Assembly (NCBI GenBank): GCA_963674735.2
Contig: CAXXQS010000001.1
Span: 96,001 to 160,000 of the forward strand
Length of the DNA stretch: 64,000 nt
DNA from: Myxococcota bacterium
GTDB lineage: Bacteria; Myxococcota_A; SURF-8
Direction of reading: 5' to 3'
The notes beneath the pieces were generated by a model that had not been told where the DNA came from, ran no database searches, and saw nothing but the letters and a program-made list of their open reading frames with translations. Of the stretch, positions 27,887 to 56,739 are shown one piece after another. The translations under genes and the position numbers were made by a program. Position 1 is the stretch's first letter; each line of letters begins with the position of its first letter.

Positions 27887-30800
27887 TCATTCCCACACCC
27901 AACCGACAACGTCTTCAAAAATATAACCATTGCTGCTCAATTGCGACAACTCAAGGTCGCTGGTCGTATAGATATGATCGGTTAGGTCGGGATTGACCAT
28001 CTGGTAGAGCGGGGTGGATTCGGGGTCGCCGGATGTGAGCGCCAGGTAGCCGAGGATCGGACCCTGAATATAACCTAGAGCGAGATAATCGGAGATGGTT
28101 TGCGCATTGGCGCTGTAAACCGTGTCGGTCGTGGTGGTGTTCGTGAGTTCGACGAAGGCCGCCAGTCCGGGCTGGGCTTCGGTGTACAGAACAAGGGGTG
28201 CGGCGGCGGTGTCGAGGGTGAAACCGCTCGGCGGGCTGGGATCGGCACTCAAACGATGATCCAAGTCGAAGCCGGGGATGACTTCGCGCTCGAAGCGATA
28301 AACGTTTGTCCGGCAGATTTCATCGGTTTGGCCGTCGCAGTCGTTGTCCTGGCCGTCGCAGGTTTCGTCGTTGCCGCTGTAGGTGGGATGTTCGGGCTCG
28401 TTCACCGAGCAGATGTGGCCTCCTTCGGCGGTACACAGCCAGATGCCTTCGGCTGTGGCGCAAGCGCCGGTTCCGTTGCAGATTTCCGGTGGATTGACGC
28501 CGTACCCTTCGTCCACCGCGCCATCGCAGTTGTTGTCGGTTCCGTCGCAAAGCTCATGGCTTCCGTCGTAGGCGCTGCCGCCGATGTCGGTGGAGCAGCG
28601 GTCGTCGCCCATGCCGTCGCATTCGTAGACGCCGACGCCGCAAGCCCCCACGCCGTCACAGGCGGCTCCGAGGGGGAAGTCTTCGTCGGTGGAGCCGTCG
28701 CAGTCGTTGTCCAGGTCGTCGCATTGTTCGGGCGATCCTTCGTATTCGCTGCCGCCCTCCTCGGTGGAACAGCGTGTGGAAAACTCGTTGGCGCATTCAA
28801 GCATGCCGGTGCCGCAGACACCTTCACCCACACACAGGCCGCCGATGCCGAAGTTCTCGTCGGTGAAACCGTCGCAATCGTTGTCCAGACCGTCGCACAG
28901 CTCCTGGCGGGCGACGTGGGTGCTGCCGCCGGGATCGCTGGAACAGAGCCGGGCGACCAGCGACGCGCATTCCCATAAACCCGAGCCGCACTCGCCGGTT
29001 CCGGTACACGGCTCGTCGATTTGGAAATCTTCATCGATAGCACTATCGCAGTCGTTGTCGCTACCGTCGCAGAGCTCGGGACGGGATTGACTGTTGCTGC
29101 CGCCGATATCGGTGGAGCAGCGGCGAGAATTCAGCGAGGCGCATTCCCACAAGCCGATGCCGCAGTCCCCGACGCCGTCGCAGGGCTGGCCGATCTGCCA
29201 GTCTTCGTCGACGGAGCCGTCGCAGTCGTTGTCGTTGCCGTCGCAAACTTCCGGAGCGCCGTCATATTCGCTGCCGTCGGGCAGGGTGGAGCAGCGCACC
29301 GTTGTTTCCGAGGCGCATTCCCACACGCCGTCTCGACAAACGCCCTCGCCCGAACAAGTCAGCCCGAGGCCGAATGTTTCGTCCGTCAGACCATCGCAGT
29401 CGTTATCCAGATTGTCGCAAAGCTCATCCTGACTTTGATCCTGGCTGCCGCCACGGTCGGTCGAGCAGCGGGCCGCGAAGGCGTTGCGGCATTCGTACAC
29501 GCCGCTGCCGCATTCCCCGACGCCGTTACAGCTTTCACCGACCGAAAAATCTTCGTCGGTGAGTCCGTCGCAGTCTTCATCGAGGTTGTTGCAGGCTTCG
29601 GCGTTGGCCACATACTCGCTGCCGCCCGGGTTCGTGGAGCAGAGCAGTTCGCCGGGATCGGTGGAGTTGCATTCGGTCACGCCCACCGGGCATTGGCCCT
29701 CACCTTGGCAGAATTCACCGAGTATGAAGCCTTCGTCTACGGCGCAGTTGCAATTGTCGTCGAGGCCGTTGCAGATCTCGTCGTCGTTGGGATGGCCCGA
29801 GCAGGGCGTCTCGCAGTCGTTGGGATTGTCGTCGCAATTGTAAAAGCCGCTTGGACAGGCCTGTGCCTCGCCGCGCAGGGTGAAAACAAAGGGGCTGCGA
29901 TCGAGATCGTTGCTTTCGATGCGCAGGGTTTCTTCGAAGTCGTCCGCGCTACTTGGAACGAACGACACGAGGATGTCGTAGTGGTCGCCCGAACTGTCGA
30001 AGGGACGCAGAAGCGCGGGTAACGGCGTTTCCGGCAAAACGGCCAGAAAAGCGCTTGCGAATCCGGGGTCGGGGCTGATCGACGACAGCAGCAGGGGGCC
30101 TTCGCCGCTGTTTTTCACCGTTAGCACCACCGGTCCGCGGCTGCCGCCGATGAACGTGCTCTCGAATTCATAAGGGGTGGCGGGCGAGATGTCGAGCACC
30201 GGGTCGATACCCGTTCCCGTGAGCGACACTTCCACATGCCGCCATTCGGGGCGCGTATCGTTGCTGTCGAGATAGAACAATCCGTCGATTGTACCGGTGG
30301 AATCGGGTGTAAAGACGATATCCAGATCGAGGGAGCTGTTCCAGGGTAGCGGATCGGCGACGGCGGTCGGATCGACGCTGAATGACGAGGAACCCTGCGT
30401 GATACCGAGTTCTTCGAGAGTCAGAGCCGCGCGGCCGGTGTTGGTGACGGTCAGGGTGATGGTCTTGCTCGATCCGAGTTGGACGTCGCCGAAGGTCAGG
30501 GCGTCGGTTTCGCTGATTTCCAGTGTGGCGGCCGTGCCACGACCCGACAACCCGAGCTCGACGCTGCCGGCCGAGTTGTCCGATTCGATGATCAGGCGAT
30601 CGATGATCGAGCCTTCCTCTTCCGGCTCGAAGGCGAGGGTGAACTGGCGCTCCCCGCCGCCCCCCGCCAGTGTAAACGGAAACAATCCGGCTTCGTCCAC
30701 GATCCGATAAGGGCTGTCGGCCATGGCGAAATCAGCCTCAAGCACGTCCACCGGCCAGCCCCCGGCATTGCGCAGGGTGACATTCAACTCGGGCGATTCG

Positions 30801-32263
30801 CCCACCCCCACGTCGCCGAACTGCAGGACGGTCGGGCTGACGGTCAGGTTGGAGATGGCGCCTTCCCCGCGAATGGCGATATCGCGGTCGGGGAAAAACA
30901 GGTCGTTGCTGTTGACACGCAGTTGGGTGCTTTCGATGCCGAGTTGGGCGGTGGGAGCGTAGCGGATCATCAGTTCGAGGTAGTCGCCGACCGCCAACGT
31001 CTGTCCTTCGGCGGGCAGTGCGGGGGGATTCAGCAACGAGAAGGGACCGTCGGTTTCGTCCAGCATGAAGCCCGATATCGTGACCGGCGATTCGCCGCAG
31101 GCCTCCAACTGCACCGGCCGTAGGCTTTCCGTGCCCACTTTGACGGTGCCGAATTGAACGGGATCGGGATTGATGCAGAGTGTGCGCGCGGCACCGTAGC
31201 CGCTGAGTGCCACCGAAAGAGTCTGATCGGCTTCGTCCTGGCTGTCGCTCTGGATGGTCAGGGTGTCGGCGGTTTCACCCCAGCGTTGGGGCGAAAAGAT
31301 CACCGCCACAATCCGGCTTTGATTGGGAGCGATTGAAAAAGGCGGTTGAGGCGACGAAGGGGTCAAGCTGAAATCGCCGCCGGATGTTCCGACGATGTCC
31401 AGATCGTAGACGGTCAACAGGCGGTTGTCATCGCTGGAGCCGGGCCGGTTACGAATGACGATCTGCAGGGGGGCCGATTCCGCTCCCACTTCGGTGGTGT
31501 CGAATTCAAGGGCCGCCGGATCGGTTTCGATGTTGGCCACACCTTTATAATCGCTGTCGAGCAGGACTTCGGCCACACGCAGGGTGGGGTCGTTGGAATA
31601 GACCAGCAGGCTGGCCTGGTCGTCGCCACCATCGCTGGGCGAGTAGGTGATACGCACATCCTGCGACTCGCCGGGGCGGATGCGCAAGGTGTCGCCGGGG
31701 GTGAGATCGATCAGAAATTCCTCGGCGTGATCGACCACGTGCAGATCGTATACTTCCAGGATCAGATTACCTGCGTTGCCGATGGTGAGGGATCGCTCGG
31801 AGCTCTGGCCAAGGACCACCGCACCGAAACTCACCCGTTCGGGCAACTGGATCTCGGCGTGCGGGACACCGTCGCCATCCACCTCGCGGTCGATGGGGAA
31901 TTCGCAATCCGTATCTTCTTCGCGCTGCAGCCAGCAGGTGCTGAATTCGTCGCAACGTCGCAACTCGGCGCATTCCAGCAGGGGTCGTGTGATACAGGTT
32001 TCAGGCAGGCTTTCGCAAACGCCGCGACAGTCGATGAGATCTTCCTCGGCGATACCGCCGCTTTCGTCGCATTCGTATAGGCGTTCACAAAAAGCGAAGC
32101 ACAAGAGGGTTAGTTCGTCCACGTCCGCATCGCCATCGGTGAGAGCGGGCTGATCGGCATCGCCGGAGTCCGTTTCGGATGAGCCGCCCCCGCAAGACGC
32201 AAGCAGGAGCACCGTCAACCCGAGCAGCCAGAAGAGAGTCCAACCGTTTCGAAGGCTGCGCAT
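27887..32263 (-). CDS. Large surface lipoprotein: ASH/choice-of-anchor D domains, nine MopE-like Cys/Asp repeats and a DUF5648-like C-terminus
   Basis: Lipobox LASC from the ATG at 32263; about six FG-x-V Ig-like units; nine E-x-C-D-G-x-D-N-D-C-D-G-x-x-D-E-type repeats; C-terminal VYRF...PLYQMVN...DHIYTT...GYIFE. Confidence 0.85.
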   Translation of the reverse strand: MRSLRNGWTLFWLLGLTVLLLASCGGGSSETDSGDADQPALTDGDADVDELTLLCFAFCERLYECDESGGIAEEDLIDCRGVCESLPETCITRPLLECAELRRCDEFSTCWLQREEDTDCEFPIDREVDGDGVPHAEIQLPERVSFGAVVLGQSSERSLTIGNAGNLILEVYDLHVVDHAEEFLIDLTPGDTLRIRPGESQDVRITYSPSDGGDDQASLLVYSNDPTLRVAEVLLDSDYKGVANIETDPAALEFDTTEVGAESAPLQIVIRNRPGSSDDNRLLTVYDLDIVGTSGGDFSLTPSSPQPPFSIAPNQSRIVAVIFSPQRWGETADTLTIQSDSQDEADQTLSVALSGYGAARTLCINPDPVQFGTVKVGTESLRPVQLEACGESPVTISGFMLDETDGPFSLLNPPALPAEGQTLAVGDYLELMIRYAPTAQLGIESTQLRVNSNDLFFPDRDIAIRGEGAISNLTVSPTVLQFGDVGVGESPELNVTLRNAGGWPVDVLEADFAMADSPYRIVDEAGLFPFTLAGGGGERQFTLAFEPEEEGSIIDRLIIESDNSAGSVELGLSGRGTAATLEISETDALTFGDVQLGSSKTITLTVTNTGRAALTLEELGITQGSSSFSVDPTAVADPLPWNSSLDLDIVFTPDSTGTIDGLFYLDSNDTRPEWRHVEVSLTGTGIDPVLDISPATPYEFESTFIGGSRGPVVLTVKNSGEGPLLLSSISPDPGFASAFLAVLPETPLPALLRPFDSSGDHYDILVSFVPSSADDFEETLRIESNDLDRSPFVFTLRGEAQACPSGFYNCDDNPNDCETPCSGHPNDDEICNGLDDNCNCAVDEGFILGEFCQGEGQCPVGVTECNSTDPGELLCSTNPGGSEYVANAEACNNLDEDCDGLTDEDFSVGESCNGVGECGSGVYECRNAFAARCSTDRGGSQDQSQDELCDNLDNDCDGLTDETFGLGLTCSGEGVCRDGVWECASETTVRCSTLPDGSEYDGAPEVCDGNDNDCDGSVDEDWQIGQPCDGVGDCGIGLWECASLNSRRCSTDIGGSNSQSRPELCDGSDNDCDSAIDEDFQIDEPCTGTGECGSGLWECASLVARLCSSDPGGSTHVARQELCDGLDNDCDGFTDENFGIGGLCVGEGVCGTGMLECANEFSTRCSTEEGGSEYEGSPEQCDDLDNDCDGSTDEDFPLGAACDGVGACGVGVYECDGMGDDRCSTDIGGSAYDGSHELCDGTDNNCDGAVDEGYGVNPPEICNGTGACATAEGIWLCTAEGGHICSVNEPEHPTYSGNDETCDGQDNDCDGQTDEICRTNVYRFEREVIPGFDLDHRLSADPSPPSGFTLDTAAAPLVLYTEAQPGLAAFVELTNTTTTDTVYSANAQTISDYLALGYIQGPILGYLALTSGDPESTPLYQMVNPDLTDHIYTTSDLELSQLSSNGYIFEDVVGWVWE

Positions 32264-32391
32264 GTCCGTTCCTTTCCGTAACCGCATGACGAGTGCGGGG
32301 AGGTTGACGCGAATCATGGAAATCCGTCGAGTCAATCAATAGAGCCTTTTCGCGAGCGGTCCCATCCGGAAAATCCGGGGCGTCCCACCAT

Positions 32392-33056: not shown

Positions 33057-33449
33057 TGTTTCCTCTCCTTATAATCTGTTCCGTCATGAGGATGCCGATG
33101 TCGACCGGCACCGTATTCGTCATGTTGCGTCTTTTAATATTGGTAGCACTGTCGCCGCTAAATTGCAAGGCGTCCGATGACTCACCGCTCGGTTCTCCCT
33201 GCGGCTTCTATTTTAGGAAACACCGCAGCGGTTTGGAATTGTCACCGCTTTCCATACCGCCCGGGGTTTCCGGGTGTCTCCGGTGGTAGACTAGGATAAA
33301 GGTTCACTGATTTCAGACTGTTGTGCTCCTGTGCTTGATCCCGTTGTGTCGCCGCGCCTTTTGGGTTACATTGCAGACGATTCGATTTTTCTTATTCTTT
33401 GATGAAACCCGGTGTTCGAGTGGTCGGCGGACACGGAAGCGAGAGAGCC

Positions 33450-34928
33450 ATGTTGGACTGCTGGTTTTTGATCCCTCCCTGCGAGCCTTTTTACAGTATG
33501 GTCGAACTGAGTCTGCCCCAAATGACCGCCTATTTGCGCGGGGCTGGTCGGAAGGTGGCTCAACGCGACCTCAACCAGACCTTTTTACACGAGAAGGTCA
33601 ATGGCGCGGGTTACGACATGCGCCGCTTTGCGGGAGTCGACGCTTTCCCGGCTAATTACCAACTCGATGCCATGGCGCTGGCGGCGCAAAAGCCGCATGC
33701 CTTGTACGAGGATTTCTTCGAGCGCCATTTCCTCGGCGATTTTCGGGAGAATCCGGCGCGTGTACTGGGGTTATCGGTGATCGGCAGTGGGCAGGTGTTG
33801 CCCAGCCTGATTCTGGCGAGGTTGGTCAAAGCCGAATTTCCCGATACGCGCGTGGTTTTAGGCGGTCCCTGGGTGACCACCGGGCGCGACCTGCTGCCGG
33901 AGTTCCTGACGGCCATGCCCATGATCGATGGAGCGGTGGCTTTTCGCGGCGAAGAGGCGCTGGCGACTTTGTTTTCGGCGTTGGACGGCCAAGCAGACTG
34001 GGGCGACATTCCCAATCTGACCTGGCGTAACGGAAATGAGGTGCAGGTCAACGCCATCGAGTCGGGTATTCCGCTCACCGGCTTGCCGCTTCCCGATTTC
34101 AAGGGACTGGATCTCGATGTTTTCCAAACTCAGGCTTTGCCTGTGATGAGTTGTCTGGGCTGCTATTGGGGAAAATGTACGTTTTGCCACCACCATGTGC
34201 GCTGGCCCACGCTTTTTCAGCGGACGGGGGCGGATGTGGTGGATATGATGGAGCAGATGCTGCCGCGTTACGGACGCAAGCGCTTTATCATGGCCGAAAA
34301 CGCGACTCCCCCCGCGCTGATGTGCGAGATGGCCGACGAGATTATCAGGCGTGAGCTCGATGTCGAGTGGGTGACGATGACGCGCGCCGAAACGGCGTTT
34401 ACCGAGGAAGTCTGCCGCAAACTCTACGAGAGCGGCTGCCGCTACCTGTGGGTGGGGCTGGAATCGTCCAGCGAAGAACTGCTGGTGAAAACCCGCAAAG
34501 GTGTGACGTTGGGGATGATGGAAAGCATGATGCGCAACTGTACGGCGGCGGGCATCAAGCTGATTCTGTTCATCGTGGATTTGCCGGGTTTCCCGGCCGA
34601 GGTGTTCAGCGGCACCCTGAAATGGCTGCTCGACCGCGCGGATATCTTTTACCAGGTGTTGGCCCAGCGCTTTCAACTGGCACGCGACAGCCACGTTTTT
34701 CACGACCCGGAGCTATTGGGTTTGCGGATTGCACCGGAGGCTTACACCAGCCTGGACGTCTACAACCTGCCTTTCGAAGGGGTTTTCGCGCGCAGCGAGG
34801 ATCGGTTCTGGCAGGAAGTTCGTCAGTTCGAAATGGATCTCGGCGCGCGGCGTGGGTACCCGACCCCGCATATGTTATTCTGGCCGGAAGCGGAAAATGA
34901 AGGTCCCAAGGGCTGGATACGCATTTGA
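33450..34928 (+). CDS. Cobalamin-binding radical SAM protein
   Basis: B12-binding-type N-terminus (AYLR...DLN, LGLSV, VLGGP, GEEAL); CYWGKCTFC [4Fe-4S] motif; GCRYLWVGLES...KG. Confidence 0.85.
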   Translation: MLDCWFLIPPCEPFYSMVELSLPQMTAYLRGAGRKVAQRDLNQTFLHEKVNGAGYDMRRFAGVDAFPANYQLDAMALAAQKPHALYEDFFERHFLGDFRENPARVLGLSVIGSGQVLPSLILARLVKAEFPDTRVVLGGPWVTTGRDLLPEFLTAMPMIDGAVAFRGEEALATLFSALDGQADWGDIPNLTWRNGNEVQVNAIESGIPLTGLPLPDFKGLDLDVFQTQALPVMSCLGCYWGKCTFCHHHVRWPTLFQRTGADVVDMMEQMLPRYGRKRFIMAENATPPALMCEMADEIIRRELDVEWVTMTRAETAFTEEVCRKLYESGCRYLWVGLESSSEELLVKTRKGVTLGMMESMMRNCTAAGIKLILFIVDLPGFPAEVFSGTLKWLLDRADIFYQVLAQRFQLARDSHVFHDPELLGLRIAPEAYTSLDVYNLPFEGVFARSEDRFWQEVRQFEMDLGARRGYPTPHMLFWPEAENEGPKGWIRI

Positions 34929-35001
34929 TATTGATTGTGTGAGTGGTTCCCTCGGAATGCATATTCGGGGGGTGGATGTTGGGTTGAGAAAGGACGGACT
35001 T

Positions 35002-36021
35002 ATGAAGAAGTGGCAGTGGGTATGGATGCTGGGGTTGTGTGTGGCGCTTTGGGCGACGGGTTGCGGATCGGATGACGCGGATACCGATGGCGATGTGGAC
35101 GGCGATTCGGATGGCGAACAAGCCGTTGCGGGGCTTGAATTGATCGGACTGGACGGCTCGACCGACTCGCTCGACTGGGACGCCTTGCAGGAACTGGACG
35201 CCACGGAAGGTCATGGCGGCTGGTTGACCAGCGTCGGGACGATCGTGGGACCGAACGTCTGGAAGGGCGTGTCCGTTGCGGATCTGTGCGACCGCGTGGG
35301 CGGTCTGCCGCAGGGGGCCGGGGTGAAAATCACTGCCAGCGACGACTACGCCATGACGCTTTCGTCCGACCAACTGCTAAACGGTGCGCTGCCGACCTTC
35401 GATCCCGAGTCGGGTGACAGCCTCGACTACGCCGGGGAACTGACCGCCATCATTGCGTATGAACGTGAGGGTGGAGCGATCGGCGACGACGACGGCGGCC
35501 CGCTGCGACTGGCTTTCGTGAGTTCCGAGGCGGATCAGCTGACCGACGGGCACTGGTGGATCAAAATGGTGGCGAAAATCGAAATCCTCGAAATGGGGAG
35601 CGACTGGACGCTCGATCTGGAGGGCGCGCGTGACGAAACGATGGACCGCGCCACCTTCGAGTCGGGGGCGGCGATGGGCTGTCACGGCTACACCTGGACC
35701 GACAGCCACGCCAACGTGTGGAGCGGCATTCCCCTGTGGCTGCTGGTGGGGCGGGTGGACGACGACAACGTGCATGACGAGGAGGCCTACAACCGCGACC
35801 TGGCCGCGCAGGGTTACAGTGTGCGGGTGGTCGGCGACGGGGCGGAAGTCGCGTTCGAAAGCGGTCGGCTTACCGAGAACGACGACATCCTGCTGGCCTA
35901 TCTGATCAACGACGTTCCGCTGGAGGGCGACGAGGCCCCGTTGAAACTGGTGGGTGCCGATCTCGACGCCGACGAGATGCTCGGCGGCATTACGCGCGTC
36001 GTGTTGGAGCTGCCGGAGTAG
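35002..36021 (+). CDS. Lipoprotein with two molybdopterin-oxidoreductase-like domains
   Basis: Lipobox ATGC plus DGD run; WKGVSV, ITASDDY, IIAYE, GGPLRL, WIKMVAKIE, and a second similar unit (WSGIPL...LLAY...PLKLVG). Confidence 0.7.
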   Translation: MKKWQWVWMLGLCVALWATGCGSDDADTDGDVDGDSDGEQAVAGLELIGLDGSTDSLDWDALQELDATEGHGGWLTSVGTIVGPNVWKGVSVADLCDRVGGLPQGAGVKITASDDYAMTLSSDQLLNGALPTFDPESGDSLDYAGELTAIIAYEREGGAIGDDDGGPLRLAFVSSEADQLTDGHWWIKMVAKIEILEMGSDWTLDLEGARDETMDRATFESGAAMGCHGYTWTDSHANVWSGIPLWLLVGRVDDDNVHDEEAYNRDLAAQGYSVRVVGDGAEVAFESGRLTENDDILLAYLINDVPLEGDEAPLKLVGADLDADEMLGGITRVVLELPE

Positions 36022-36052
36022 GGCCGTATTTCGACGCATGATTTGGAGATGA

Positions 36053-36078
36053 AGCCGGGTTCGCGCCCGGCTTTTTTT
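36053..36078 (+). terminator. Rho-independent terminator
   Basis: AGCCGGG-TTCGCG-CCCGGCT followed by a T run. Confidence 0.85.
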
Positions 36079-36135
36079 GCGGGTTGGGGAAAGCCTTGCC
36101 CGGATCGGAATGCTTCGAAAGCAACAGACTTTTAA

Positions 36136-36165
36136 TTGACTAATTCGCCGGTCGTTTGATATGAT
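36136..36165 (+). promoter_or_regulatory. Sigma70-like promoter upstream of the cyclase-CHAT-STAND-TPR gene
   Basis: TTGACT-N18-TATGAT with an extended -10 TG. Confidence 0.55.
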
Positions 36166-36315
36166 ACACGCCTGGGTGTTCAACGCGATAAACGTCACGA
36201 GTAAATTCCGGGGAGAGAACGATTGGCCGACGCGCAGCTTGCGGTGTGTCCCCGATAAGTTGGGGATGGCTTTCGAGAAGGCGGCGCGGCGGTCGGCTTT
36301 GGATAGTGGGGTTGA

Positions 36316-39300
36316 ATGATGCAAGTGACTCATGTGCCTGTTCTGCTGGTTGACGTCGAGGGATTCACCACGCATAGCGTGCCCGAGCGACGCACGATCC
36401 TGCGGCGTTTGCAGGAAAAGCTCACCGACTGCGCGCGCTTTTTCATGCCGCTCGGAGATCCCTGGGATAAATGGACCCGCCACGGAACCGGCGACGGCTA
36501 TTACTTCATTTTCGATGGGCTCGGAAAAGACGCCGCGCTGGTGGCGATGGAATACGCACGTCGGCTGGAGGAGGCGTTTTTCCGCTACAACGCCGAGGAG
36601 GCCGAGGGCCTTCCGCTTCGCTTGCGTATGGGGATCGTGCTCGGCGACGTGGAAACGGTGGACGACCAGTTTAACAGTGAAGTGATGTGCGATGCCGCGC
36701 GCTTCGTGGACGATCCCGAGTTCAAAAACTACTTCGCTGGTTTGAGCACGGCCACCGGCCTGATCGTCTCGCAGCATTTCTACTCCGAATGGCGGGAGGC
36801 CGCTCGCAAGGATAAGCAGGAAATCTTTGCCGCGTCCCGCGATCTGAGCTTTTCGCCCGTGCGCATCGTAGACAAACATGGGCGGCCCTACGAGGGGCGG
36901 GTGCTGGGTTCGGGCTGGACGGCCGAACCGGCGCGCGAAGAGGTGAAGCCGCGCTTGAAAATTTTGATGTTGATCGGCTGTTCGGTCGAGGAACGCTTGC
37001 CCGAAGCGATTGAGATGGCTCGCGAAGCCGCCTCCGAGTGGATGGCGTCGGGCCTGCATGTGGACGTGCGTGTCGATCAGGCGTCGGTGGCGGCGATCCG
37101 GCGCGAGGCCAAACGCGAACCCGACTGGCTGTTTTTCTACGGCCACGGCAGCGAAGACGGCCGCCTGCAGTTCGCCGATGGACTCAAGTCGTATGAGGAA
37201 ATCGGCCAGCACGACACCTTCTGGAAGCGGCTCAAGCTGGCGGTGGTCTTCGCCTGTCACGGTCGCCAGTTTGCCGAAAATCTGCCGGGTCCCTGGCTGG
37301 CTTTCGACGGTCCCGTCTGGCGTGAGGCTCCCAAGGGCTTGATGCGCGTACTGGTTGAGCAGCTCGCGTCGAAACCGGTCGGCGAGGCGCTGAAACCGGC
37401 TCTCGCGGCCTGTCGCGAGGAAATGACCTCCGATTTCGTCGATCTGCTTCGCCGTTCGGACGAGCAGGAGCCTGCGATTCCCTTGCCCTCCGAGATTGTG
37501 CCGAAAGGCGAGCCGATCATCACGCGATTGAATGCCGGGATCGCCGGGCACGCCAACGTGGAGTTCAAAATCGGCTCGGTCACCTATCCCGCCCACGATC
37601 CGTTTGTGGGGCGCGTGGCCATGCTCAAAAAGATGCTGGAGCTGCCCGGAGGCGCGAAGGACGTCAGCGACCGCAACGTGCGCTGGCTGTGCGGCCGGGG
37701 CGGCTTGGGGAAGACGGCGCTCATGCAGGAGGCGGCGCTGTGCGCGCAAAATCTCGTTTTTCACGAGGACGGCGAGCCGCTGTACGTCTTCCTGATGAGC
37801 TGTCATGAAATCACCGAGCTGAAGCAGTTAAACGAAGAGCTGGGCCGTCGCCTGGCCGGGCATTACGGATTGGATCTCCCGGAGCCCAGTGTCGATGCCG
37901 TGCTCAAGGAGCTCGGCAAGCAGCCGAAGGCGCGCCACTTGTGGCTTTTGGACGACCTGACCTACATCACTCCGCGCCGCGATCAAAAGGACGACGCCAC
38001 CCGTTTTGTGGACGATCTGAAGTTTCGGGCTGGTAACGCCGCCTTGACGCTGGCCTTGCGTGTGAGTACGCGGCAGGACGCCCCCGCGCACCTCGGGCCA
38101 CTGCCTATCGCGCCGCTCGATCCCCTGGATGCGCGGGAGCTGGCCGAATGCGTGTATCGGCGCTCGGCACAAACGTCTCCCGATCGTCAGCCGGATTACG
38201 CGGGTGCGCTCAAGCTGTTTCATCTGGTGGGGCAATCGACCGCGCTCTACAAGCTGTCGCTGATTCTGGCGGCGGACAACCAACGCAGCTTCGGCGAGCA
38301 TGCCAAGCGCTTGTCCGAGCAGGGCTCGCTTGAAGGTATGGACATCGAAGAGCTGGCCGCGAAGATGATCCAAGTGGAAGTCGAGTCGCTGGGCGCGATG
38401 GAGCAGCGCCTGCAATTCGATTTTAAGGCCTTCATGCCGTGTTTGTACGACATCATCCTGCGTGCGGGCTCCATCAAAATTGTCGATGCCGACGAATGGG
38501 AAACCGACCTGGAAAACTGGTTCGGCGACCGCCTGAACCGCTCCGGCCAGGCCAATGGAACCCGCCGGGTATACCGCAATGGTTTGGAGTATCTAGTGCG
38601 CCTGGGCTTGTTGGCGCTGGAGGCGCGTCCGCATGCCGATCCCGCCTACACTCTGCCGCCTAATCAACGCCTGGCCATCAAGGCCTTGCGTCAATGCCGC
38701 GATGAAGCCGTTCAGAGCATGCCCTGGCGGGCTCTCAAATCACGTTCGCTTCTGCTTTTTGAGCAAGCGATGGCAAATCCAGAACTGGCTTTAGCCGAAG
38801 TTGAGCAAGAATACAACGAATATGAGCCGTATTTCGATGAGGATCCAACGACGGCGTTAGCTGTTATTGATCATTTCATAGATGTGGGGATATACGGCGA
38901 TTTTAAAGAAAAACCAGAGCTTGAATGCGATGTGTATGACACAGCAATAAATCATTTTGAAAGACGTGAAGAAGTCCCTGTTAAAAAAATGGTTATTAAG
39001 GCACTTAATCGAAAAGGGCGATGGCTCAATGAAAATAAACGCCCGGAGGAAGCCGTTCAAGTTCACGATGAGGTACTACGGAGAATTGATGAACTGGAGA
39101 AAGACGGTTTATTGGCGGATTCACAGGTAGAACCGCCAGAGAAAGGTCGTGATTCTGATGATGTGGATTCCTTGATCGCCCTGTTGGATGAGCCTTCATT
39201 GAGTACTTCCGAGATTGCTGAAGCAAAGCTGCATGAGATGGCAAGTTCTTCACTTCTTGGAAAAGGACTAGCCTACGATAAGCTGAAAGATTATGAAAAT

Positions 39301-40728
39301 GAAATTGCGATGTACGATGAATTGGTATGCCGCTTTGGTGGAAGTGAAGAGTGGAGTTTGCGCAATTATGTAGCGTGGGCAATGATAAATAAGGCGGTGA
39401 CATTACAAAATGAAAAGCAGTTAGAATTGGCTTTTTCTGAATATGATGCGGTTCTTGATCGGGTTGCTATTTGGATCGGAGATGGAAAGCTTGATCGTGT
39501 ATGGCAGTTGTTCAAGAGGTCAGGCTTGGATTTTGATATCGATAAATATCTGGAGCCTGACGGGGATTCTGAAGATTTGCCGGATCTGGATTTATTTTTT
39601 AATTCCGATAAGGATGAGATCTTCTCTTATGCTGTTGAAGCGCTGTCTGGCAAGGGAGATATTCTCGGGTTAACTGGGCAAAATCAACAGGCTATTGATA
39701 TTTACGATGAAGTAATCAGTTTGTTAGATGGCCGAGACGAGGACAATTTATTAAAGATATTTGCCTGGACCTTGGTGAACAAGGGAGTATCGCTGGGGCA
39801 ACTCAACCGCCCAGACGAGGAACTGGCGGTTTACGATGATGTGATCGCGCGTTTCGGCTCACGTGATGAAGTGGCGCTTTTGGAACAGGTGGCGAAGGCT
39901 TTGATTTATAAGGGGATTACGCTGGGTCAGCTTGGCCGCTCGGACGAGGCCTTGGCGGTTTACGAGGATGTAGTCGCGCGTTTCGGCTCTCGTGATGAAG
40001 CGGTTCTTCTGGATCCGGTGGCGTCGGCCCTGGTGAACAAGGGAGTTACGCTGGGTCAGCTTGGCCGCTCGGACGAGGCCTTGGCGGTTTACGAGGATGT
40101 AGTCGCGCGTTTCGGATCACGTGAGGAATTGGCGCTTCTGGAGCAAGTGGCGAAGGCCTTGGTGGGCAAGGGGGTTACGCTGGGTGAGATCGGCCACCCG
40201 GACGAGGCCTTGGCTGCTTACGAGGATGTGATTGCGCGTTTCGGCTCACGTGATGAAGTGGTCTTGCTTGAGCAAGTGGCGACGGCGTATAACGGGAAAG
40301 CATGGGGGGTGTATGAATCGCGCCAGGATGAAAAGCTTTCCGACGCCATTGTTTTTGGTCAACGTGCTCTTGAATTGCAACCGGAGGAAAACTGGTATCG
40401 GCACACGCTGGCGTCCGTGTTGGGCCTGGTGGGCCGCTGGCCGGAAGCCCTGGAGCAGGCGCGCCATTTTGTCGATGATGAAACGCTGGTTGAGCAAGCT
40501 CTTGACGATATCGTGGATTTCTTCATCTTGGCGGCGGCTTCGGGGCAGGCTGGGCTTGCGCTCGATGGGTTGCTTGGAACGAAAAGCGCGGCCGCCCGGC
40601 CTGCTTTACCCCTCGCGCTGGCCATGAGCCTCGGCCAACAACCCGATGCAACGCCGGAGCTTCTGGCCGCCGCCCGCGAGATCGTCACCCGAATCGAAAC
40701 CCGCAAGGCCGAGCTTGCGCAGATGTAA
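36316..40728 (+). CDS. Multidomain protein: class III nucleotide-cyclase-like domain, CHAT/caspase-like protease, STAND-type P-loop NTPase and TPR array
   Basis: LVDVEGFT...GTGDG...RLRMGIVLGDV...DAARF (cyclase-like); FFYGHG...VVFACHG (His-Cys dyad); PFVGR...GRGGLGKT...LWLLDD (STAND); 43-aa TPR repeats. Confidence 0.8.
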   Translation: MMQVTHVPVLLVDVEGFTTHSVPERRTILRRLQEKLTDCARFFMPLGDPWDKWTRHGTGDGYYFIFDGLGKDAALVAMEYARRLEEAFFRYNAEEAEGLPLRLRMGIVLGDVETVDDQFNSEVMCDAARFVDDPEFKNYFAGLSTATGLIVSQHFYSEWREAARKDKQEIFAASRDLSFSPVRIVDKHGRPYEGRVLGSGWTAEPAREEVKPRLKILMLIGCSVEERLPEAIEMAREAASEWMASGLHVDVRVDQASVAAIRREAKREPDWLFFYGHGSEDGRLQFADGLKSYEEIGQHDTFWKRLKLAVVFACHGRQFAENLPGPWLAFDGPVWREAPKGLMRVLVEQLASKPVGEALKPALAACREEMTSDFVDLLRRSDEQEPAIPLPSEIVPKGEPIITRLNAGIAGHANVEFKIGSVTYPAHDPFVGRVAMLKKMLELPGGAKDVSDRNVRWLCGRGGLGKTALMQEAALCAQNLVFHEDGEPLYVFLMSCHEITELKQLNEELGRRLAGHYGLDLPEPSVDAVLKELGKQPKARHLWLLDDLTYITPRRDQKDDATRFVDDLKFRAGNAALTLALRVSTRQDAPAHLGPLPIAPLDPLDARELAECVYRRSAQTSPDRQPDYAGALKLFHLVGQSTALYKLSLILAADNQRSFGEHAKRLSEQGSLEGMDIEELAAKMIQVEVESLGAMEQRLQFDFKAFMPCLYDIILRAGSIKIVDADEWETDLENWFGDRLNRSGQANGTRRVYRNGLEYLVRLGLLALEARPHADPAYTLPPNQRLAIKALRQCRDEAVQSMPWRALKSRSLLLFEQAMANPELALAEVEQEYNEYEPYFDEDPTTALAVIDHFIDVGIYGDFKEKPELECDVYDTAINHFERREEVPVKKMVIKALNRKGRWLNENKRPEEAVQVHDEVLRRIDELEKDGLLADSQVEPPEKGRDSDDVDSLIALLDEPSLSTSEIAEAKLHEMASSSLLGKGLAYDKLKDYENEIAMYDELVCRFGGSEEWSLRNYVAWAMINKAVTLQNEKQLELAFSEYDAVLDRVAIWIGDGKLDRVWQLFKRSGLDFDIDKYLEPDGDSEDLPDLDLFFNSDKDEIFSYAVEALSGKGDILGLTGQNQQAIDIYDEVISLLDGRDEDNLLKIFAWTLVNKGVSLGQLNRPDEELAVYDDVIARFGSRDEVALLEQVAKALIYKGITLGQLGRSDEALAVYEDVVARFGSRDEAVLLDPVASALVNKGVTLGQLGRSDEALAVYEDVVARFGSREELALLEQVAKALVGKGVTLGEIGHPDEALAAYEDVIARFGSRDEVVLLEQVATAYNGKAWGVYESRQDEKLSDAIVFGQRALELQPEENWYRHTLASVLGLVGRWPEALEQARHFVDDETLVEQALDDIVDFFILAAASGQAGLALDGLLGTKSAAARPALPLALAMSLGQQPDATPELLAAAREIVTRIETRKAELAQM
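39763..40281 (+). repeat. Four near-identical 129-bp (43-aa) TPR-encoding tandem repeats
   Basis: GCTGGGTCAGCTTGGCCGCTCGGACGAGGCCTTGGCGGTTTACGAGGATGTAGTCGCGCGTTTCGG recurs at 39921 and 40050; protein unit A.AL.NKG.TLGQLGR.DEALAVYEDV.ARFGSRDE..LLEQV. Confidence 0.9.
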
Positions 40729-53676: not shown

Positions 53677-56600
53677 ATGGCGAAAACGAAAACCCAAGCG
53701 ACGAATCAAATAACAGCCACCCGATCGGGTAAGGACAAAGGCTTCGTCATCGAGAAGCCGGTCAAGCTCTTGAATAAGCAGATAGGCATTGATACGAAAA
53801 AATTCTTTGTGCATGTCGGCCAAGCGGCGGCAGCATTTATCGGTGGTGGCCCTTCAAGCTCAATACCGAAATTATTGGAAGCCGCCTCTGCTTTCAGCTT
53901 AAAGACAACACCGGAAGAACGCGCCTGGGTGTTGGTGCAACGTTCGATGGGACGCGCCCTGAAAGATCTCGTGGAAGAACAGGTCGGCGAACTTGATCTT
54001 GAACGTCTTGAACAAGCGGTGGAGATTGCCGATAAACTCGATTACGGGCTTGAAACTGAAACCGTCGAAATCGACACCCGGTTTTTCGACAATCCCGGCG
54101 CGTGCAGGTATGTCGAGATGATGCGGCCCGTTTTCGAAAGCTGGCTACTCGCCAGCGGCATGGATTCGGCTCGGGCGGAAAATACCGCACGGCGGCTGCC
54201 GTCCTTTTTTAACTCTGCGATCCATCACGAGTTGTATGAAAATGCGGGCAATTACGCCATGATCGTTGAGGCTTTCGACTCCCTCGCTTTCACGGCTGTT
54301 CAGCACGATGCAGATTGGCGGCGCTACCGGGCCAAACTGATGCGGCAAGTGGAAGAAAGCATGCTCGGCGAAGCCTTCGGCCTGAAGGATATCTTTATCG
54401 AGCTTCGGGCTTACTACAAGGAATCCGCGAAAACGAAAAACGAACCCCCATCCAAGCGACTTCTTGCACGCGATATGGACGATGAGAATGATAAGAAGGA
54501 AACGCGACATGTCGTCGATTTGCACGACCACGTTCGCTCCTGGATTGAACAAAGAAGCCAAAAGGATGCATTACGAGTCATCAGTGGTGGGCCCGGCAGC
54601 GGGAAATCTTCGTTTGCCAAAATGCTGGCGGCCGAGCTGGCGGCGGAAAATCGCCTTGTGCTATATATTCCCTTGCACAACATGAATCCTAAAAGCGACC
54701 TCGCCGATTCGGTCGGGGATTTCCTGCATGAGTATGACGACTTCAGGGAGAATCCACTCAGCGTTCCGCAAAGCGACCCGATCGTGCTGCTTTTCGATGG
54801 CTTGGATGAGCTGTCCGAGCGCGGCCGCGCCGGGTATGAGGCCGCCAAGCAATTTATCGAAAAACTGCTGGTGAAGCTGCACCAGAAAAATGATCAAAAA
54901 TGCCAGTGTCAAGCCTTGGTGCTGGGGCGGGATCTCTCGATACAGGCGCAAGATTATTTCTTGAAGAAGGAAAAGACCCTCCATTTATTACCTCTTTGGA
55001 TGACGGAGAAGGAACGTGAGACATTTGTCGATAGGAGAAAGAGACTTGAACACGACTTTCGGCTGGATTGGTGGGCGGCCTATTGCCGCTTGATGCAACA
55101 CGTTGATCCCGAAATGCCGGAATTCTTGAGGCGGGAAGAGCTGGAGGAAATCACGGCGGAACCTTTGCTCATTTACTTGGCGGCACAAACCTTTTTTGAT
55201 GAAAGAATCGATTTCACCCAAACCGTTAGTGTTAACCAGATTTACGGAGCCATGCTGGAATATGTTTGGGAGCGTGGATATGAAGGCCGTCAAGAAGGTC
55301 GGCGGCACAGAGTGATCGATGAATTTGAATTGAAACAAGAGGAATTCACGGCGATCATGCAGGAGGTGGGTGTGGCCGCCTGGCAGGGCCAGGGCCGAAA
55401 AGCCACAACCGAGGCGATCCATCAGCGTTGTGCCCCCAGCCTACAAAAAAAGTTCGAGCGCTTCGCCGATGACGCGCAGAGCGGCGTTTTGCGATTGCTC
55501 ACCGCTTTTTATCTGCGGCGCACGGCCGAGGACCGCGGCGACAACGTGATCGAATTCACGCACAAGAGCTTCGGTGAATATTTGACGGCAAGAAGGATCG
55601 TGCGGCAGTTGTACACCATGGTTGAACAATTGAAAATGCGTGAGCAAGATCAATATGGAAACAATGGTTGGGATGCGGCGGAGGCTTTGTGTAAATGGAT
55701 CGAGTTGACGGGGCCGACCGCCATGGATCGCGATCTTTACCGTTTTGTCGATCGTGAAATCGAATTGGATTATAAGCGCGATCCGGAAATGATCGAGAAT
55801 TGCCAGGAACAGATCGTCAAGTTGATGAACGTTCATCTTCGATACGGCATGCCGATGCAGGATTTGAAACCACGCCTTCCAAAATATCAGGAGGAAACGC
55901 GGCAGGCCAGAAACGCCGATGAAGCCCTGCTGGCCCTTCATTGTGCATGTGCGAAAAGAACGGGAACGTTAAGCCAAATCAAGTGGCCGGAGAAAACGAG
56001 CGCCGGTGCGTGGCTGAGTCGCTTGCAACCTCAGCGATTGGACCTAACAACCACATTAGCTTATGACTGTTTCTCGGATTTGGATTTTTCGCAGCAATGT
56101 TTTGATTTTGCCAATTTCTATAGGGCAAACATACAAAGAAGTAAATTTACTCTATGTTTTATGCTTTTTGCTTCGCTTGTAGATTGTCACGCTTTAAAGG
56201 CACATTTGGAGGTCGCAAATTTATTTGAAGCAAAAATGAAACGCGCGAATTTAAAAGGCGCGTATTTGGATGGTGCGAATATGATTCGCGCGAATTTAAG
56301 TGATGCAAAATTGAATGGTGCGAATTTAAGGGATACAAAATTGAATAGTGCGAATTTGAGAGGCGCGAATTTAAGGGATGCAAAATTGAATGGTGCGAAT
56401 TTAAGGGATGCAAAAATGGGTTACGCGGATTTGGGTTACGCGGATTTGGAAGGCGCGGATTTGGAAGGTGCGCAATTGGAAATCGCGATTTTGGAAGATG
56501 CGAATTTGAGCGATGCGAATTTGTGGGGTGCAAATTTGAGGGATGCGAATTTGAGGGACGCGAATTTGGAAGGCGCGAATTTGGTAAACGCGAATTTGGA

Positions 56601-56739
56601 ACGTGCGAATTTGGGACGCGCGGATTTGAGCGGCGCGGATTTGAGAGGCGCGAATTTGGAAGGCGCGAATTTCGAGGGTGCGAATTTGACCGGCACCATT
56701 CTGGATAAGAAGCGCAAGCCCCGAAAAAGCACCGACTAG
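53677..56739 (+). CDS. NACHT NTPase with C-terminal pentapeptide repeats
   Basis: Walker A GGPGSGKS, Walker B LLFDGLDEL, EPLL, FTHKSFGEYL; long A(N/D)LxG/D pentapeptide tail. Confidence 0.92.
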   Translation: MAKTKTQATNQITATRSGKDKGFVIEKPVKLLNKQIGIDTKKFFVHVGQAAAAFIGGGPSSSIPKLLEAASAFSLKTTPEERAWVLVQRSMGRALKDLVEEQVGELDLERLEQAVEIADKLDYGLETETVEIDTRFFDNPGACRYVEMMRPVFESWLLASGMDSARAENTARRLPSFFNSAIHHELYENAGNYAMIVEAFDSLAFTAVQHDADWRRYRAKLMRQVEESMLGEAFGLKDIFIELRAYYKESAKTKNEPPSKRLLARDMDDENDKKETRHVVDLHDHVRSWIEQRSQKDALRVISGGPGSGKSSFAKMLAAELAAENRLVLYIPLHNMNPKSDLADSVGDFLHEYDDFRENPLSVPQSDPIVLLFDGLDELSERGRAGYEAAKQFIEKLLVKLHQKNDQKCQCQALVLGRDLSIQAQDYFLKKEKTLHLLPLWMTEKERETFVDRRKRLEHDFRLDWWAAYCRLMQHVDPEMPEFLRREELEEITAEPLLIYLAAQTFFDERIDFTQTVSVNQIYGAMLEYVWERGYEGRQEGRRHRVIDEFELKQEEFTAIMQEVGVAAWQGQGRKATTEAIHQRCAPSLQKKFERFADDAQSGVLRLLTAFYLRRTAEDRGDNVIEFTHKSFGEYLTARRIVRQLYTMVEQLKMREQDQYGNNGWDAAEALCKWIELTGPTAMDRDLYRFVDREIELDYKRDPEMIENCQEQIVKLMNVHLRYGMPMQDLKPRLPKYQEETRQARNADEALLALHCACAKRTGTLSQIKWPEKTSAGAWLSRLQPQRLDLTTTLAYDCFSDLDFSQQCFDFANFYRANIQRSKFTLCFMLFASLVDCHALKAHLEVANLFEAKMKRANLKGAYLDGANMIRANLSDAKLNGANLRDTKLNSANLRGANLRDAKLNGANLRDAKMGYADLGYADLEGADLEGAQLEIAILEDANLSDANLWGANLRDANLRDANLEGANLVNANLERANLGRADLSGADLRGANLEGANFEGANLTGTILDKKRKPRKSTD
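56210..56700 (+). repeat. 15-bp periodic pentapeptide-coding repeat
   Basis: GCGAATTT(A/G) or GCGGATTTG recurring every 15 nt. Confidence 0.9.

Follow-up and report, generated by a model that had tools for sequence, protein, structure and literature searches.

Among the known systems closest to the protein described here are the bNACHT proteins (Kibby et al., 10.1101/2022.07.19.500537); like them, it carries N-terminal effectors, a NACHT-type STAND module in the centre and repeats at the C-terminus. cNMP cyclases and caspase peptidases are among the effector classes given in that preprint, and published surveys report that bacterial NACHT/STAND proteins use both as effectors (10.1101/2022.07.19.500537, PMC7159879, PMC8195603). 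Avs/AVAST receptors (PMC13581612) share the single-chain effector–STAND–TPR layout, in which ligand-driven oligomerisation assembles the N-terminal effector. The conflict systems described by Kaur, Burroughs, Iyer and Aravind (PMC7159879, PMC8195603) share a vocabulary of cNMP cyclase, caspase, TIR, EADs, TCAD, FGS/FGE-sulfatase and STAND domains; in these systems cyclase and caspase displace each other, and one polypeptide joins a nucleotide cyclase, FGS, TRADD-N and a caspase. Type IV Thoeris (10.1101/2024.10.24.620036) and SAVED-CHAT (8tl0) are multi-gene systems that combine a caspase/CHAT protease effector with a nucleotide-signal generator and carry the nucleotide sensor on the protease. 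Pycsar/Pucsar (10.64898/2026.08.12.744502) uses for immunity a cyclase that has the class III-type fold and whose specificity residues depart from the canonical ones.

The gene at 36316..40728 on the + strand of the window (the whole 64,000-nucleotide stretch of DNA analysed) encodes a 1470-aa protein that departs from all of these. Unlike bNACHT proteins, it has no PADLOC match and carries two enzymatic domains in tandem, neither of which is seen by Pfam; this exact cyclase-like and caspase-like tandem was not found in the available text of the bNACHT preprint, figures and supplements aside. Compared with Avs, there is no sequence membership and no defence-island context, and the effectors are cyclase-like and caspase-like, not nuclease, SIR2 or similar. 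Whereas the systems of Kaur et al. use EAD, vWA-MoxR or TRADD-N components and partner genes, none of these is present here, and a NACHT-TPR core carries the two domains as a direct fusion. In contrast to type IV Thoeris and SAVED-CHAT, no nucleotide sensor is seen on the protease, and activation would presumably come from STAND oligomerisation. In contrast to Pycsar/Pucsar, the cyclase-like domain here belongs to the same chain as a STAND sensor rather than standing alone, with no PycC match and no adjacent effector gene for a cyclic nucleotide.

Gene and transcription unit

The coding sequence (1470 aa plus stop codon, ATG start) is a real, intact gene. It is collinear with the homologue P0002 (E 1.1e-116 over the N-terminus; 34% identity over 1286 alignment columns), and because such collinear homologues exist, the architecture is more than a chance assembly. 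A stand-alone gene with its own promoter had been proposed in the first-pass annotation, and the flanks agree with this. Upstream, a hairpin and U-run at 36040..36085 (+) closes a molybdopterin-oxidoreductase-like gene and sets the 5' limit of the unit; RNA folding gave dG -23.3 kcal/mol and z -3.87, with 0/200 shuffles equally good, while a scan for consensus terminators did not flag it. Next, at 36136..36165 (+), comes a sigma-70-like candidate promoter, TTGACT-18-TATGAT, extended by a TG; it is a consensus match only (10/12 matches; 1 site seen where shuffles gave 0.2 on average). The gene on the 3' side is convergent.

Its neighbours in the window are metabolic genes (radical SAM, molybdopterin oxidoreductase, acyl-AMP ligase, M19 dipeptidase and PALP enzyme), and the gene lies outside any defence island. 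They include neither a cyclic-nucleotide receptor nor an effector gene that carries a cyclic-nucleotide-binding domain.

Domain architecture

From N- to C-terminus, computation assigns a class III cyclase-like domain, a CHAT/caspase-like peptidase, a STAND NTPase and TPR-like repeats, and this four-domain protein is almost certainly real. Pfam and NCBIfam matches were to NACHT and TPR only, with no Guanylate_cyc (PF00211), CHAT or Peptidase_C14 match in the Pfam search at E<=1. The cyclase, CHAT and STAND folds come from AF2, Foldseek and profile searches, and the TPR region from Pfam. Both the cyclase and the caspase fold were predicted confidently by AlphaFold, and the motif positions in the first-pass annotation, which had proposed the same four domains, are all exact on the translation. 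PADLOC assigned 0 families to the gene; the comparison with Avs made in that annotation holds for the logic of the protein and fails for family membership. Domain searches found no regulatory output domain in the protein, DNA-binding or otherwise.

Cyclase-like domain

Domain 1, a divergent class III nucleotidyl-cyclase-like domain, spans residues 1-200 (36316..36915, +). A Foldseek search of the PDB with the N-terminal AF2 model (residues 1-435, pLDDT 81.4) returned class III cyclase 3et6 at E 1.1e-9, and the highest TM-scores among the hits (0.72-0.77 with normalisation to the target) fell on entries of Ma1120, a small stand-alone class III adenylyl cyclase from Mycobacterium avium (4wp8 and others) that shares the fold with this part of a much longer protein. 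Family profiles run against PDB cyclase sequences matched 3mr7 at E 1.2e-4, then 6.1e-9, and Ma1120 at E 8.5e-5.

The metal-binding residues Asp13 (in DVEGF) and Asp60 (in GTGDG), the phosphate-binding Arg129 (in DAARF) and Lys187 are retained. Conservation was counted among 154 fetched relatives, in which each of these is kept in more than 94% (Asp13 and Asp60 both 104/107, Arg129 96/102, Lys187 77/80). HMM alignment to Ma1120 and 3mr7, with the residue numbers of PMC4215837, places Cys125, four residues N-terminal of Arg129, at the transition-state Asn position, His56 at the adenine-specifying Lys and Gln118 at the second specificity position, where Ma1120 has Lys101 and Asp157. The features first noted from the sequence (two Asp and the Arg kept, Cys for Asn, no adenine-specifying Lys) are thereby confirmed, and since the specificity pair is His/Gln, the substrate is unpredictable. 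Asn occupies its usual position in only 9/101 aligned relatives. Its absence had been taken as a hint of a pseudo-cyclase; the absence stands, although it carries less weight than was given to it, because Ma1120 has Ala at that position and is active, and A164N abolishes its activity (PMC4215837). Several cNMP cyclase domains of conflict systems are catalytically inactive according to Kaur et al. 2020 (PMC7159879/PMC8195603). The domain has about an even chance of being catalytically active.

CHAT/caspase-like domain

Domain 2 has a CHAT/caspase-like clan CD peptidase fold over residues about 213-380 (36952..37455, +), as judged from Foldseek, AF2 and conservation; its best structural match in the PDB was SAVED-CHAT 8tl0 (E 4.8e-9), and weak Peptidase_C25 matches occur in 6/29 relatives. 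The protease dyad is intact. His277 (nt 37144-37146, +) lies in YGHG (residues 275-278, nt 37138-37149) behind a strand at 271-276, and Cys314 (nt 37255-37257, +) lies in FACHG (residues 312-316, nt 37249-37263) behind a strand at 308-312 in the AF2 model. His277 is kept in 56/60 relatives and Cys314 in 57/60, and this domain is quite likely an active protease. By these counts, catalytic residues are conserved and under selection in the cyclase-like and the CHAT-like domain alike. The type IV Thoeris caspase-like protease ThsE cleaves cellular proteins indiscriminately (10.1101/2024.10.24.620036) and needs no dedicated substrate gene, so the lack of an adjacent gasdermin poses no problem. No SAVED, Macro or other nucleotide-sensor domain was found between the CHAT core and the NTPase, where residues 381-425 are partly a low-confidence linker in AF2.

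STAND NTPase and TPR-like region

The STAND module, with NBD, helical and winged-helix parts, covers residues about 426-800 (37591..38715, +). Its AF2 model (pLDDT 86.5, pTM 0.85) matched Apaf-1, NRC2, the STAND-TPR protein 6mfv, NLRC4, MalT (8bob) and CED-4 in Foldseek. The Walker A motif GRGGLGKT (residues 460-467, nt 37693-37716, +) and the Walker B motif LLDD (residues 544-547, nt 37945-37956, +) are where they had been placed. Pfam NACHT is marginal on the protein (22.6-24.9 bits against a cut-off of 26.7), above the cut-off in a six-frame genome search (27.7 bits) and found in 28/29 family members.

The remainder, 38716..40725 (+), is an alpha-helical TPR-like repeat region with a cap, supported by Pfam TPR families and by collinearity with P0002 to the C-terminus, and is presumed to be the sensor. 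Pfam TPR matches are strong at residues 1190-1310, and the repeat type is common to 45 other TPR/STAND proteins at 23-36% identity. Tandem Repeats Finder located a TPR-like unit of 129 nt (43 aa), present in four tandem copies, at 39770..40286 (+; period 129, 4.0 copies, 81% matches, score 640). Residues 841-1120 (38836..39675, +) form a compositionally foreign segment, with GC3 of 0.30-0.43 against 0.70-0.87 in residues 1-770 and 0.72-0.82 in neighbouring genes; a dip in GC is also visible there.

Relatives and distribution

Among relatives of at least 800 aa, 21 have both N-terminal domains, 16 only the CHAT-like and 14 only the cyclase-like domain; therefore, each domain functions without the other. 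The two are shuffled independently. TIR takes the cyclase slot in P0052, P0071 and P0111 (TIR-CHAT-NACHT-TPR), and the cyclase-like domain stands alone at the N-terminus of the NACHT-FGE proteins P0009 and P0010. Elsewhere it occurs with TCAD9-kinase-FGE (P0118), double STAND-FGE (P0133), a ParA-like NTPase (P0084), or TPR and EAD2 (P0145, P0152). EAD2, TCAD9 and FGE-sulfatase sensors are characteristic of published conflict systems.

A search for the gene in 60 related genomes, 5 of them of the same family, found it in none, and 25 loci of relatives are spread over Thermodesulfobacteriota, Chloroflexi, Planctomycetota, Magnetococcales, Acidobacteriota, Cloacimonadota and Verrucomicrobia. Most of the 77 nearest neighbour ORFs at 23 family loci are housekeeping genes, the others including FGE-sulfatase (6), NACHT (3), reverse transcriptase (2-3), TIR_2 (2), bpMoxR (2) and BrxC/D (1); no neighbour is conserved across loci. 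The lack of a match in 60 related genomes, the scattered phyla and the foreign sensor segment are the behaviour of an accessory, fast-evolving gene.

Functional interpretation

The protein is probably an immune or conflict receptor, and with somewhat more reserve we favour the reading that it is an NLR-like STAND receptor of the NACHT clade, built as a single chain with two proximity-activated effectors and belonging to the bacterial conflict-system type. The defence or cell-death role first suggested for it draws support from the TIR swap, the EAD2, TCAD9-kinase-FGE and NACHT-FGE contexts and the patchy distribution. Points against are the lack of a PADLOC model, the metabolic neighbourhood, the mostly housekeeping and unconserved genes beside relatives, the lack of a Pfam cyclase or CHAT match, the missing transition-state Asn, the non-canonical specificity pair, the inactive cNMP cyclases noted by Kaur et al. 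2020 and the lack of a cyclic-nucleotide receptor close by.

Domain 1 might instead be a pseudo-cyclase that binds nucleotide or dimerises in a regulatory, autoinhibitory or scaffolding role, leaving the protease as sole effector. The Cys at the Asn position and the rarity of Asn among relatives, the replaced Lys/Asp pair, the missing PF00211 match and the CHAT-NACHT-TPR relatives that work without domain 1 all fit this, as do the nucleotide-binding or dominant-negative roles suggested for inactive cNMP cyclases by Kaur et al. 2020. It is nevertheless unlikely: retention of the Asp pair, Arg129 and Lys187 is the pattern of an enzyme and not of a binding module, Ma1120 works as a cyclase despite lacking the Asn, domain 1 is the only candidate output in P0009 and P0010 and recurs without CHAT in long relatives, and its swap partner, TIR, is an enzymatic domain.

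A STAND/TPR switch that couples an endogenous metabolite or developmental cue to cAMP/cGMP synthesis and regulated proteolysis is improbable. The metabolic setting, the PADLOC result and MalT among the structural matches would suit such a regulator, and fusions of class III cyclases with ATPase and TPR modules are known from actinobacteria and, like MalT-type proteins, offer a precedent. However, the protein lacks a regulatory output domain, its relatives carry TIR, EAD2, TCAD9 and FGE-sulfatase parts typical of conflict systems, and its distribution and foreign sensor segment are those of an accessory gene; no characterised non-defence regulator with the cyclase-CHAT-STAND-TPR architecture turned up in the literature searched. 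More improbable still is a cascade like that of type IV Thoeris or SAVED-CHAT within a single chain, in which the oligomerised cyclase-like domain, or TIR in the swapped relatives, would make a nucleotide that activates CHAT allosterically, in cis or in neighbouring molecules. Both generators sit directly N-terminal of the same CHAT-like domain, whose best match is a protease controlled by cyclic oligonucleotides, and in type IV Thoeris a TIR-made nucleotide activates the caspase-like protease (10.1101/2024.10.24.620036); yet the stretch from the CHAT core to the NTPase shows no nucleotide sensor, and long relatives have CHAT without a generator or a generator without CHAT.

In the receptor that we favour, the TPR-like region would bind a ligand derived from an invader or from stress, lifting autoinhibition and allowing NTP-dependent oligomerisation of the STAND module, which would crowd the N-terminal domains together. 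Class III cyclases all require a head-to-tail dimer to form the active site; crowded cyclase-like domains could pair in this way and turn over NTP, giving either a cyclic nucleotide signal or a drain on NTP. The caspase-like domains, active by proximity, would cut cellular proteins or the receptor itself, and the infected cell would end in growth arrest or death. The protein is a bacterial relative of the animal and plant NLR immune receptors with two output domains on one chain, and an uncharacterised variant within a protein class already catalogued by comparative genomics.

Domain anatomy of the putative receptor

The gene is an uninterrupted ORF at 36316..40728 (+) encoding 1470 amino acids, with its ATG as the first start codon past an in-frame stop. 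The motifs reported in the first-pass annotation were all recovered in place: DVEGF (Asp13), GTGDG (Asp60), and DAARF (Arg129, with Cys125 four residues before) in domain 1, YGHG (residues 275–278, from nt 37138) and FACHG (residues 312–316, from nt 37249) in domain 2, and Walker A GRGGLGKT (460–467) and LLDD (544–547) in the STAND module. For the whole protein, Pfam returned TPR families and a sub-threshold NACHT match, and nothing else; Guanylate_cyc (PF00211), CHAT (PF12770), and Peptidase_C14 (PF00656) had no Pfam match at E ≤ 1. Only TPR-type partial matches were given by NCBIfam, and 0 families at E ≤ 1 by PADLOC-DB 2.0.0 (2023 library). The Pfam models for cyclases and CHAT thus fail to recognise either effector domain, and because all three libraries miss domains 1 and 2, independent confirmation of these domains was needed.

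A search with residues 1–450 found nine other protein clusters, seven of which span both N-terminal domains at 36–44% identity; the other two match the first 200 residues only and then carry NACHT and FGE-sulfatase. The N-termini of these relatives were used to build an alignment (A1), from which an AlphaFold2 model of residues 1–435 was obtained (mean pLDDT 81.4); it has two compact α/β domains, with residues 203–209 forming a disordered connection between them. Comparison of this model with the PDB by Foldseek bore out both proposed folds. Domain 1 matched catalytic domains of class III cyclases, among them 3et6 (E 1.1e-9), CyaC 1wc1 (E 2.6e-8), and soluble guanylate cyclase, with entries for the cyclase Ma1120 at TM 0.72–0.77 normalised to target, and the caspase-like domain 2 matched the SAVED-CHAT protease 8tl0 (E 4.8e-9). 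By sequence alone, the A1 profile reached the cyclase 3mr7 in the PDB at E 1.2e-4; a profile of a broader 17-sequence alignment of domain 1 (A4) reached it at E 6.1e-9 over positions 10–130, including both metal-Asp motifs, and Ma1120 at E 8.5e-5. Only such family profiles reach PDB cyclases by sequence. In the ESM Atlas, the nearest clusters to domain 1 are nameless hypothetical proteins (0.96–0.97) and DUF2652 (0.94), which serve as leads only.

For the STAND module, a model of residues 426–925 was built from 29 sequences (pLDDT 86.5, pTM 0.85). Its Foldseek matches were Apaf-1, NRC2, the STAND-TPR protein 6mfv, NLRC4, MalT, and CED-4, in agreement with the earlier assignment as a STAND NTPase and with the NBD–helical–winged-helix fold of the NACHT clade, and Gly, Lys, Asp-Asp, and Arg are invariant across the 29 sequences. 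Pfam NACHT (PF05729) scored 22.6 and 24.9 bits on this protein against a cut-off of 26.7 bits, and 27.7 bits, slightly above it, in a six-frame genome search. Of the 29 family members, 28 were matched by the same model at E ≤ 0.1, the strongest at 1.2e-10. A single-sequence PDB search with residues 426–925 gave a chance-level match only (E 0.97). The C-terminus is TPR-like, as had been claimed, and contains four tandem 129-nt repeats at 39770–40286.

Catalytic residues of the cyclase-like domain

Domain 1 was compared with Ma1120 by HMM alignment, using the numbering in the available text of PMC4215837. Cys125 falls at A164, the usual transition-state Asn position, and Arg129 at the conserved R168. 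The two proteins share the cyclase fold and the absence of Asn, and differ at the specificity residues, where Ma1120 has K101 and D157 and this protein His56 and Gln118. The first-pass reading of Cys for Asn, with no Lys at the specificity position, is thereby upheld. Asp13 and Asp60 (metal-binding) and Arg129 (phosphate-binding) align with 3mr7 as well as with Ma1120.

Conservation was counted by running the A1 profile over 154 stored relatives. Asp13 and Asp60 are each kept in 104 of 107, Arg129 in 96 of 102, and Lys187 in 77 of 80; by its place in a predicted β-hairpin rather than by alignment, Lys187 would correspond to the Lys with which the canonical KGK motif binds phosphate. The Asn position is occupied among 101 relatives by Ile (28), Thr (21), Ala (16), Ser (13), or Asn (9), the Lys position among 108 by His (66), Gln (18), or Glu (10), and the Asp position among 104 by Gln (70), Gly (10), Arg (8), or His (7). 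Neither the canonical Lys/Asp (ATP) nor a Glu/Cys-type (GTP) specificity pair is present in domain 1, and the transition-state Asn is likewise absent. The most distant family members, P0150–P0154, retain the canonical Asn-x-A-x-R motif and bridge the clade to ordinary cyclases.

The missing Asn had been read as a hint of a pseudo-cyclase. Its absence is real, but the available text of PMC4215837 describes Ma1120 as an active cyclase with Ala at that position, in which the A164N mutation abolishes activity, so the absent Asn is no argument that domain 1 is dead. That its metal ligands are almost invariant argues for a catalytically live domain instead. A complex prediction for two copies of residues 1–200 with A1 gave a median of 0.28 against a mark of 0.42, and was counted neither way on dimerisation.

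The protease domain

The His/Cys dyad was described as intact and is conserved, with His277 kept in 56 of 60 relatives and Cys314 in 57 of 60. In the AlphaFold2 model, His277 follows strand 271–276 and Cys314 follows strand 308–312, each behind a core β-strand, as in caspases. Domain 2 is thus predicted to have a caspase-hemoglobinase fold of the clan CD type, yet lies outside the Pfam CHAT and Peptidase_C14 models; Pfam gave only weak matches to Peptidase_C25, the best at E 5.3e-4, among 6 of 29 relatives. A search of the gene's own genome with Pfam Gasdermin (PF04598) gave no match, but the control was positive in 0 of 14 genomes, so this search was without power. No dedicated substrate is needed, because the caspase-like protease of type IV Thoeris degrades cellular proteins indiscriminately, according to the portion of the report available (10.1101/2024.10.24.620036).

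Gene boundaries and surroundings

The gene was proposed to stand alone, and an upstream hairpin with a U-run, its own sigma-70-like site, and a convergent downstream neighbour agree with this. The upstream gene is molybdopterin-oxidoreductase-like and extends to 36021; after it comes the strong hairpin at 36040–36085 (ΔG −23.3 kcal/mol, z −3.87), which was found by direct RNA folding and was unflagged by a consensus terminator scan. The candidate promoter, TTGACT-18-TATGAT, is at 36136–36165, and the next gene downstream, in convergent orientation, encodes an acyl-AMP ligase. The neighbours of the gene in the window are metabolic genes.

Several other ORFs in this region were noted. An antisense ORF of 809 aa at 35377–37806 (−) overlaps the gene over its 5′ third; the coding strand being GC-rich, this ORF is most likely its shadow frame. 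As listed, a radical-SAM/B12-binding ORF at 33399–34928 (+) overlaps the molybdopterin-oxidoreductase-like ORF at 34729–36021 (+) by 200 nt; the listed TTG start of the latter is probably too far upstream. A 1482-aa ORF at 27887–32335 (−) carries several Ig-like domains of the HYDIN/ASH/Cep192 type, four metal-binding motifs of the MopE type, and DUF5648 at its C-terminus, and has the look of a large protein that is secreted or displayed on the surface. A second NLR-like gene lies 13 kb downstream at 53677–56739 (+) and encodes 1020 aa, in which an NNH3 helical N-terminus precedes NACHT (37.7 bits) and then pentapeptide repeats. With GC at 0.50 and GC3 at 0.57 it falls below its surroundings, so it too was probably acquired horizontally.

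Mosaic composition within the sensor

Composition along the gene under study is uneven. GC3 is 0.70–0.87 over residues 1–770, 0.30–0.43 over residues 841–1120, and 0.60–0.73 after residue 1190, with neighbouring genes at 0.72–0.82. From this drop, part of the sensor looks recently imported, and the low-GC3 segment (38626–39885, core 38836–39675) suggests recombination from a low-GC source. A search for its donor with residues 790–1195 returned 45 other proteins, none above 36% identity and the best-scoring, P0155, only 30% identical; no close donor emerged.

Distribution and genomic context

Its own genome carries one copy of the gene, which was not found in 60 related genomes, where 5 share the family, 4 the order, and 51 the phylum. 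With one genome taken per GTDB species, relatives were located at 25 loci, nearly all in MAGs, from Thermodesulfobacteriota, Chloroflexi, Planctomycetota, Magnetococcales, Acidobacteriota, Cloacimonadota, Verrucomicrobia, and other groups. All-against-all BLASTP of 246 ORFs from 26 loci and the window revealed no conserved neighbour gene. An operon partner was rejected, as nothing but the STAND family and a single cluster of 3 members recurs in at least three loci.

The 77 nearest non-family ORFs, at most two per side, were then scanned with Pfam and PADLOC at 23 loci, leaving out loci L011 and L012 and ORFs running off a locus end. Among the families listed, which are the 25 commonest per library (others seen were housekeeping types), were FGE-sulfatase (6), NACHT (3), reverse transcriptases (2–3), Cas1-like (3), TIR_2 (2), bpMoxR (2), and BrxC/D (1). 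The reverse transcriptase and FGE-sulfatase neighbours are reminiscent of DGR-diversified sensors. At six loci, mainly from Magnetococcales MAGs (L013, L015, L016, L017, L023, and L026), cyclase-like–NACHT genes adjoin further large STAND paralogues.

Shuffling of N-terminal modules

Searched by profile, 1.84 billion representatives yielded 499 proteins at E ≤ 1e-3; the number fell to 139 at 1e-10 and to 83 at 1e-30. Of the fetched proteins of at least 800 aa, 21 contained both domains, 16 the CHAT-like domain only, and 14 the cyclase-like domain only, with 4 partial; most of the 102 shorter matches are probably contig fragments. When selected members were scanned with Pfam, a TIR–CHAT-like–NACHT–TPR architecture was seen in P0052, P0071, and P0111. 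The cyclase-like domain was also found with TCAD9, protein kinase, and FGE-sulfatase (P0118), between two STAND modules with FGE-sulfatase at the end (P0133), after a ParA-like NTPase (P0084), and flanked by TPRs and EAD2 (P0145 and P0152). TIR, TCAD9, EAD2, and FGE-sulfatase belong to the vocabulary of NTP-dependent conflict systems in the accessible text of Kaur et al. (PMC7159879, PMC8195603), and cNMP cyclases and caspases are among the NACHT effector classes in that of the bNACHT study (10.1101/2022.07.19.500537).

The 43-aa TPR-like sensor repeat occurs with other N-terminal Pfam domains in P0170, P0180, P0183, P0195, and P0188, namely PF13289, PF12706/PF00753, and PF13676 (TIR_2). We take the first of these to be SIR2-like and the second to be metallo-β-lactamase. 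This sensor type thus spans several effector classes.

Proposed mechanism and relation to known systems

Computation establishes that the protein has four domains, that both of its catalytic centres are under selection, and that the two N-terminal modules shuffle independently. Beyond this, a mechanism is inferred from what is known of STAND/NLR proteins, class III cyclases, and caspases. Class III cyclases are obligate dimers with active sites at the interface, and caspases are proximity-activated. Binding of a ligand to the TPR-like sensor would lead to NTP-dependent oligomerisation of the receptor, which would gather the N-terminal domains and thereby switch on cyclase-like domain and protease alike.

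The two enzymes could alternatively be wired in series within one chain, with STAND oligomerisation activating a generator (the cyclase-like domain, or TIR in sister proteins) whose nucleotide, made here by a cyclase of the His/Gln-specificity clade, then activates CHAT proteases beyond the first ligand-sensing receptor. Such an arrangement would make the protein an NLR-like receptor with built-in signal amplification, fusing Thoeris IV or Pycsar logic with Avs logic in a single gene, and the presence of TIR ahead of CHAT would fit it in so far as either module could act as generator. The same swap in the domain-1 slot, together with cyclase-only and CHAT-only relatives, points rather to independent effectors, and we regard the serial arrangement as very improbable.

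Two independent effectors on one oligomerising core would follow the working logic of Avs/bNACHT receptors, although by sequence this protein belongs to no PADLOC family. It has no match to an Avs/AVAST family model (PADLOC-DB 2.0.0, 2023), and its context in the window is metabolic, not a defence island. Unlike in Pycsar, there is no PADLOC PycC-type match, and the 25 related loci and the window offer no conserved neighbour as a candidate cyclic-nucleotide-binding effector. The nearest published statement, in the available text from the PMC8195603/PMC7159879 group, concerns a conflict-system protein in which TRADD-N is joined to nucleotide cyclase, FGS, and caspase domains. The cyclase–caspase–NACHT–TPR chain is not described in the portions of the literature searched, though figures or supplementary tables of the surveys may list it, and no cyclase-like or caspase-like effector fused to a STAND core is characterised there.

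If the gene is merely another conflict-system variant, the gain would be incremental. The cyclase-like clade is nevertheless distinct, with a conserved His/Gln specificity pair, and escapes both Pfam and PADLOC; the domain 1 and domain 2 families could enter defence-annotation libraries. The family also provides a natural swap experiment, with cyclase, TIR, or nothing ahead of the same CHAT domain. Single-effector bacterial NLR-like proteins are now well studied, and this protein would offer a one-gene test of whether an NLR-like oligomer can activate two different proximity-dependent enzymes together.
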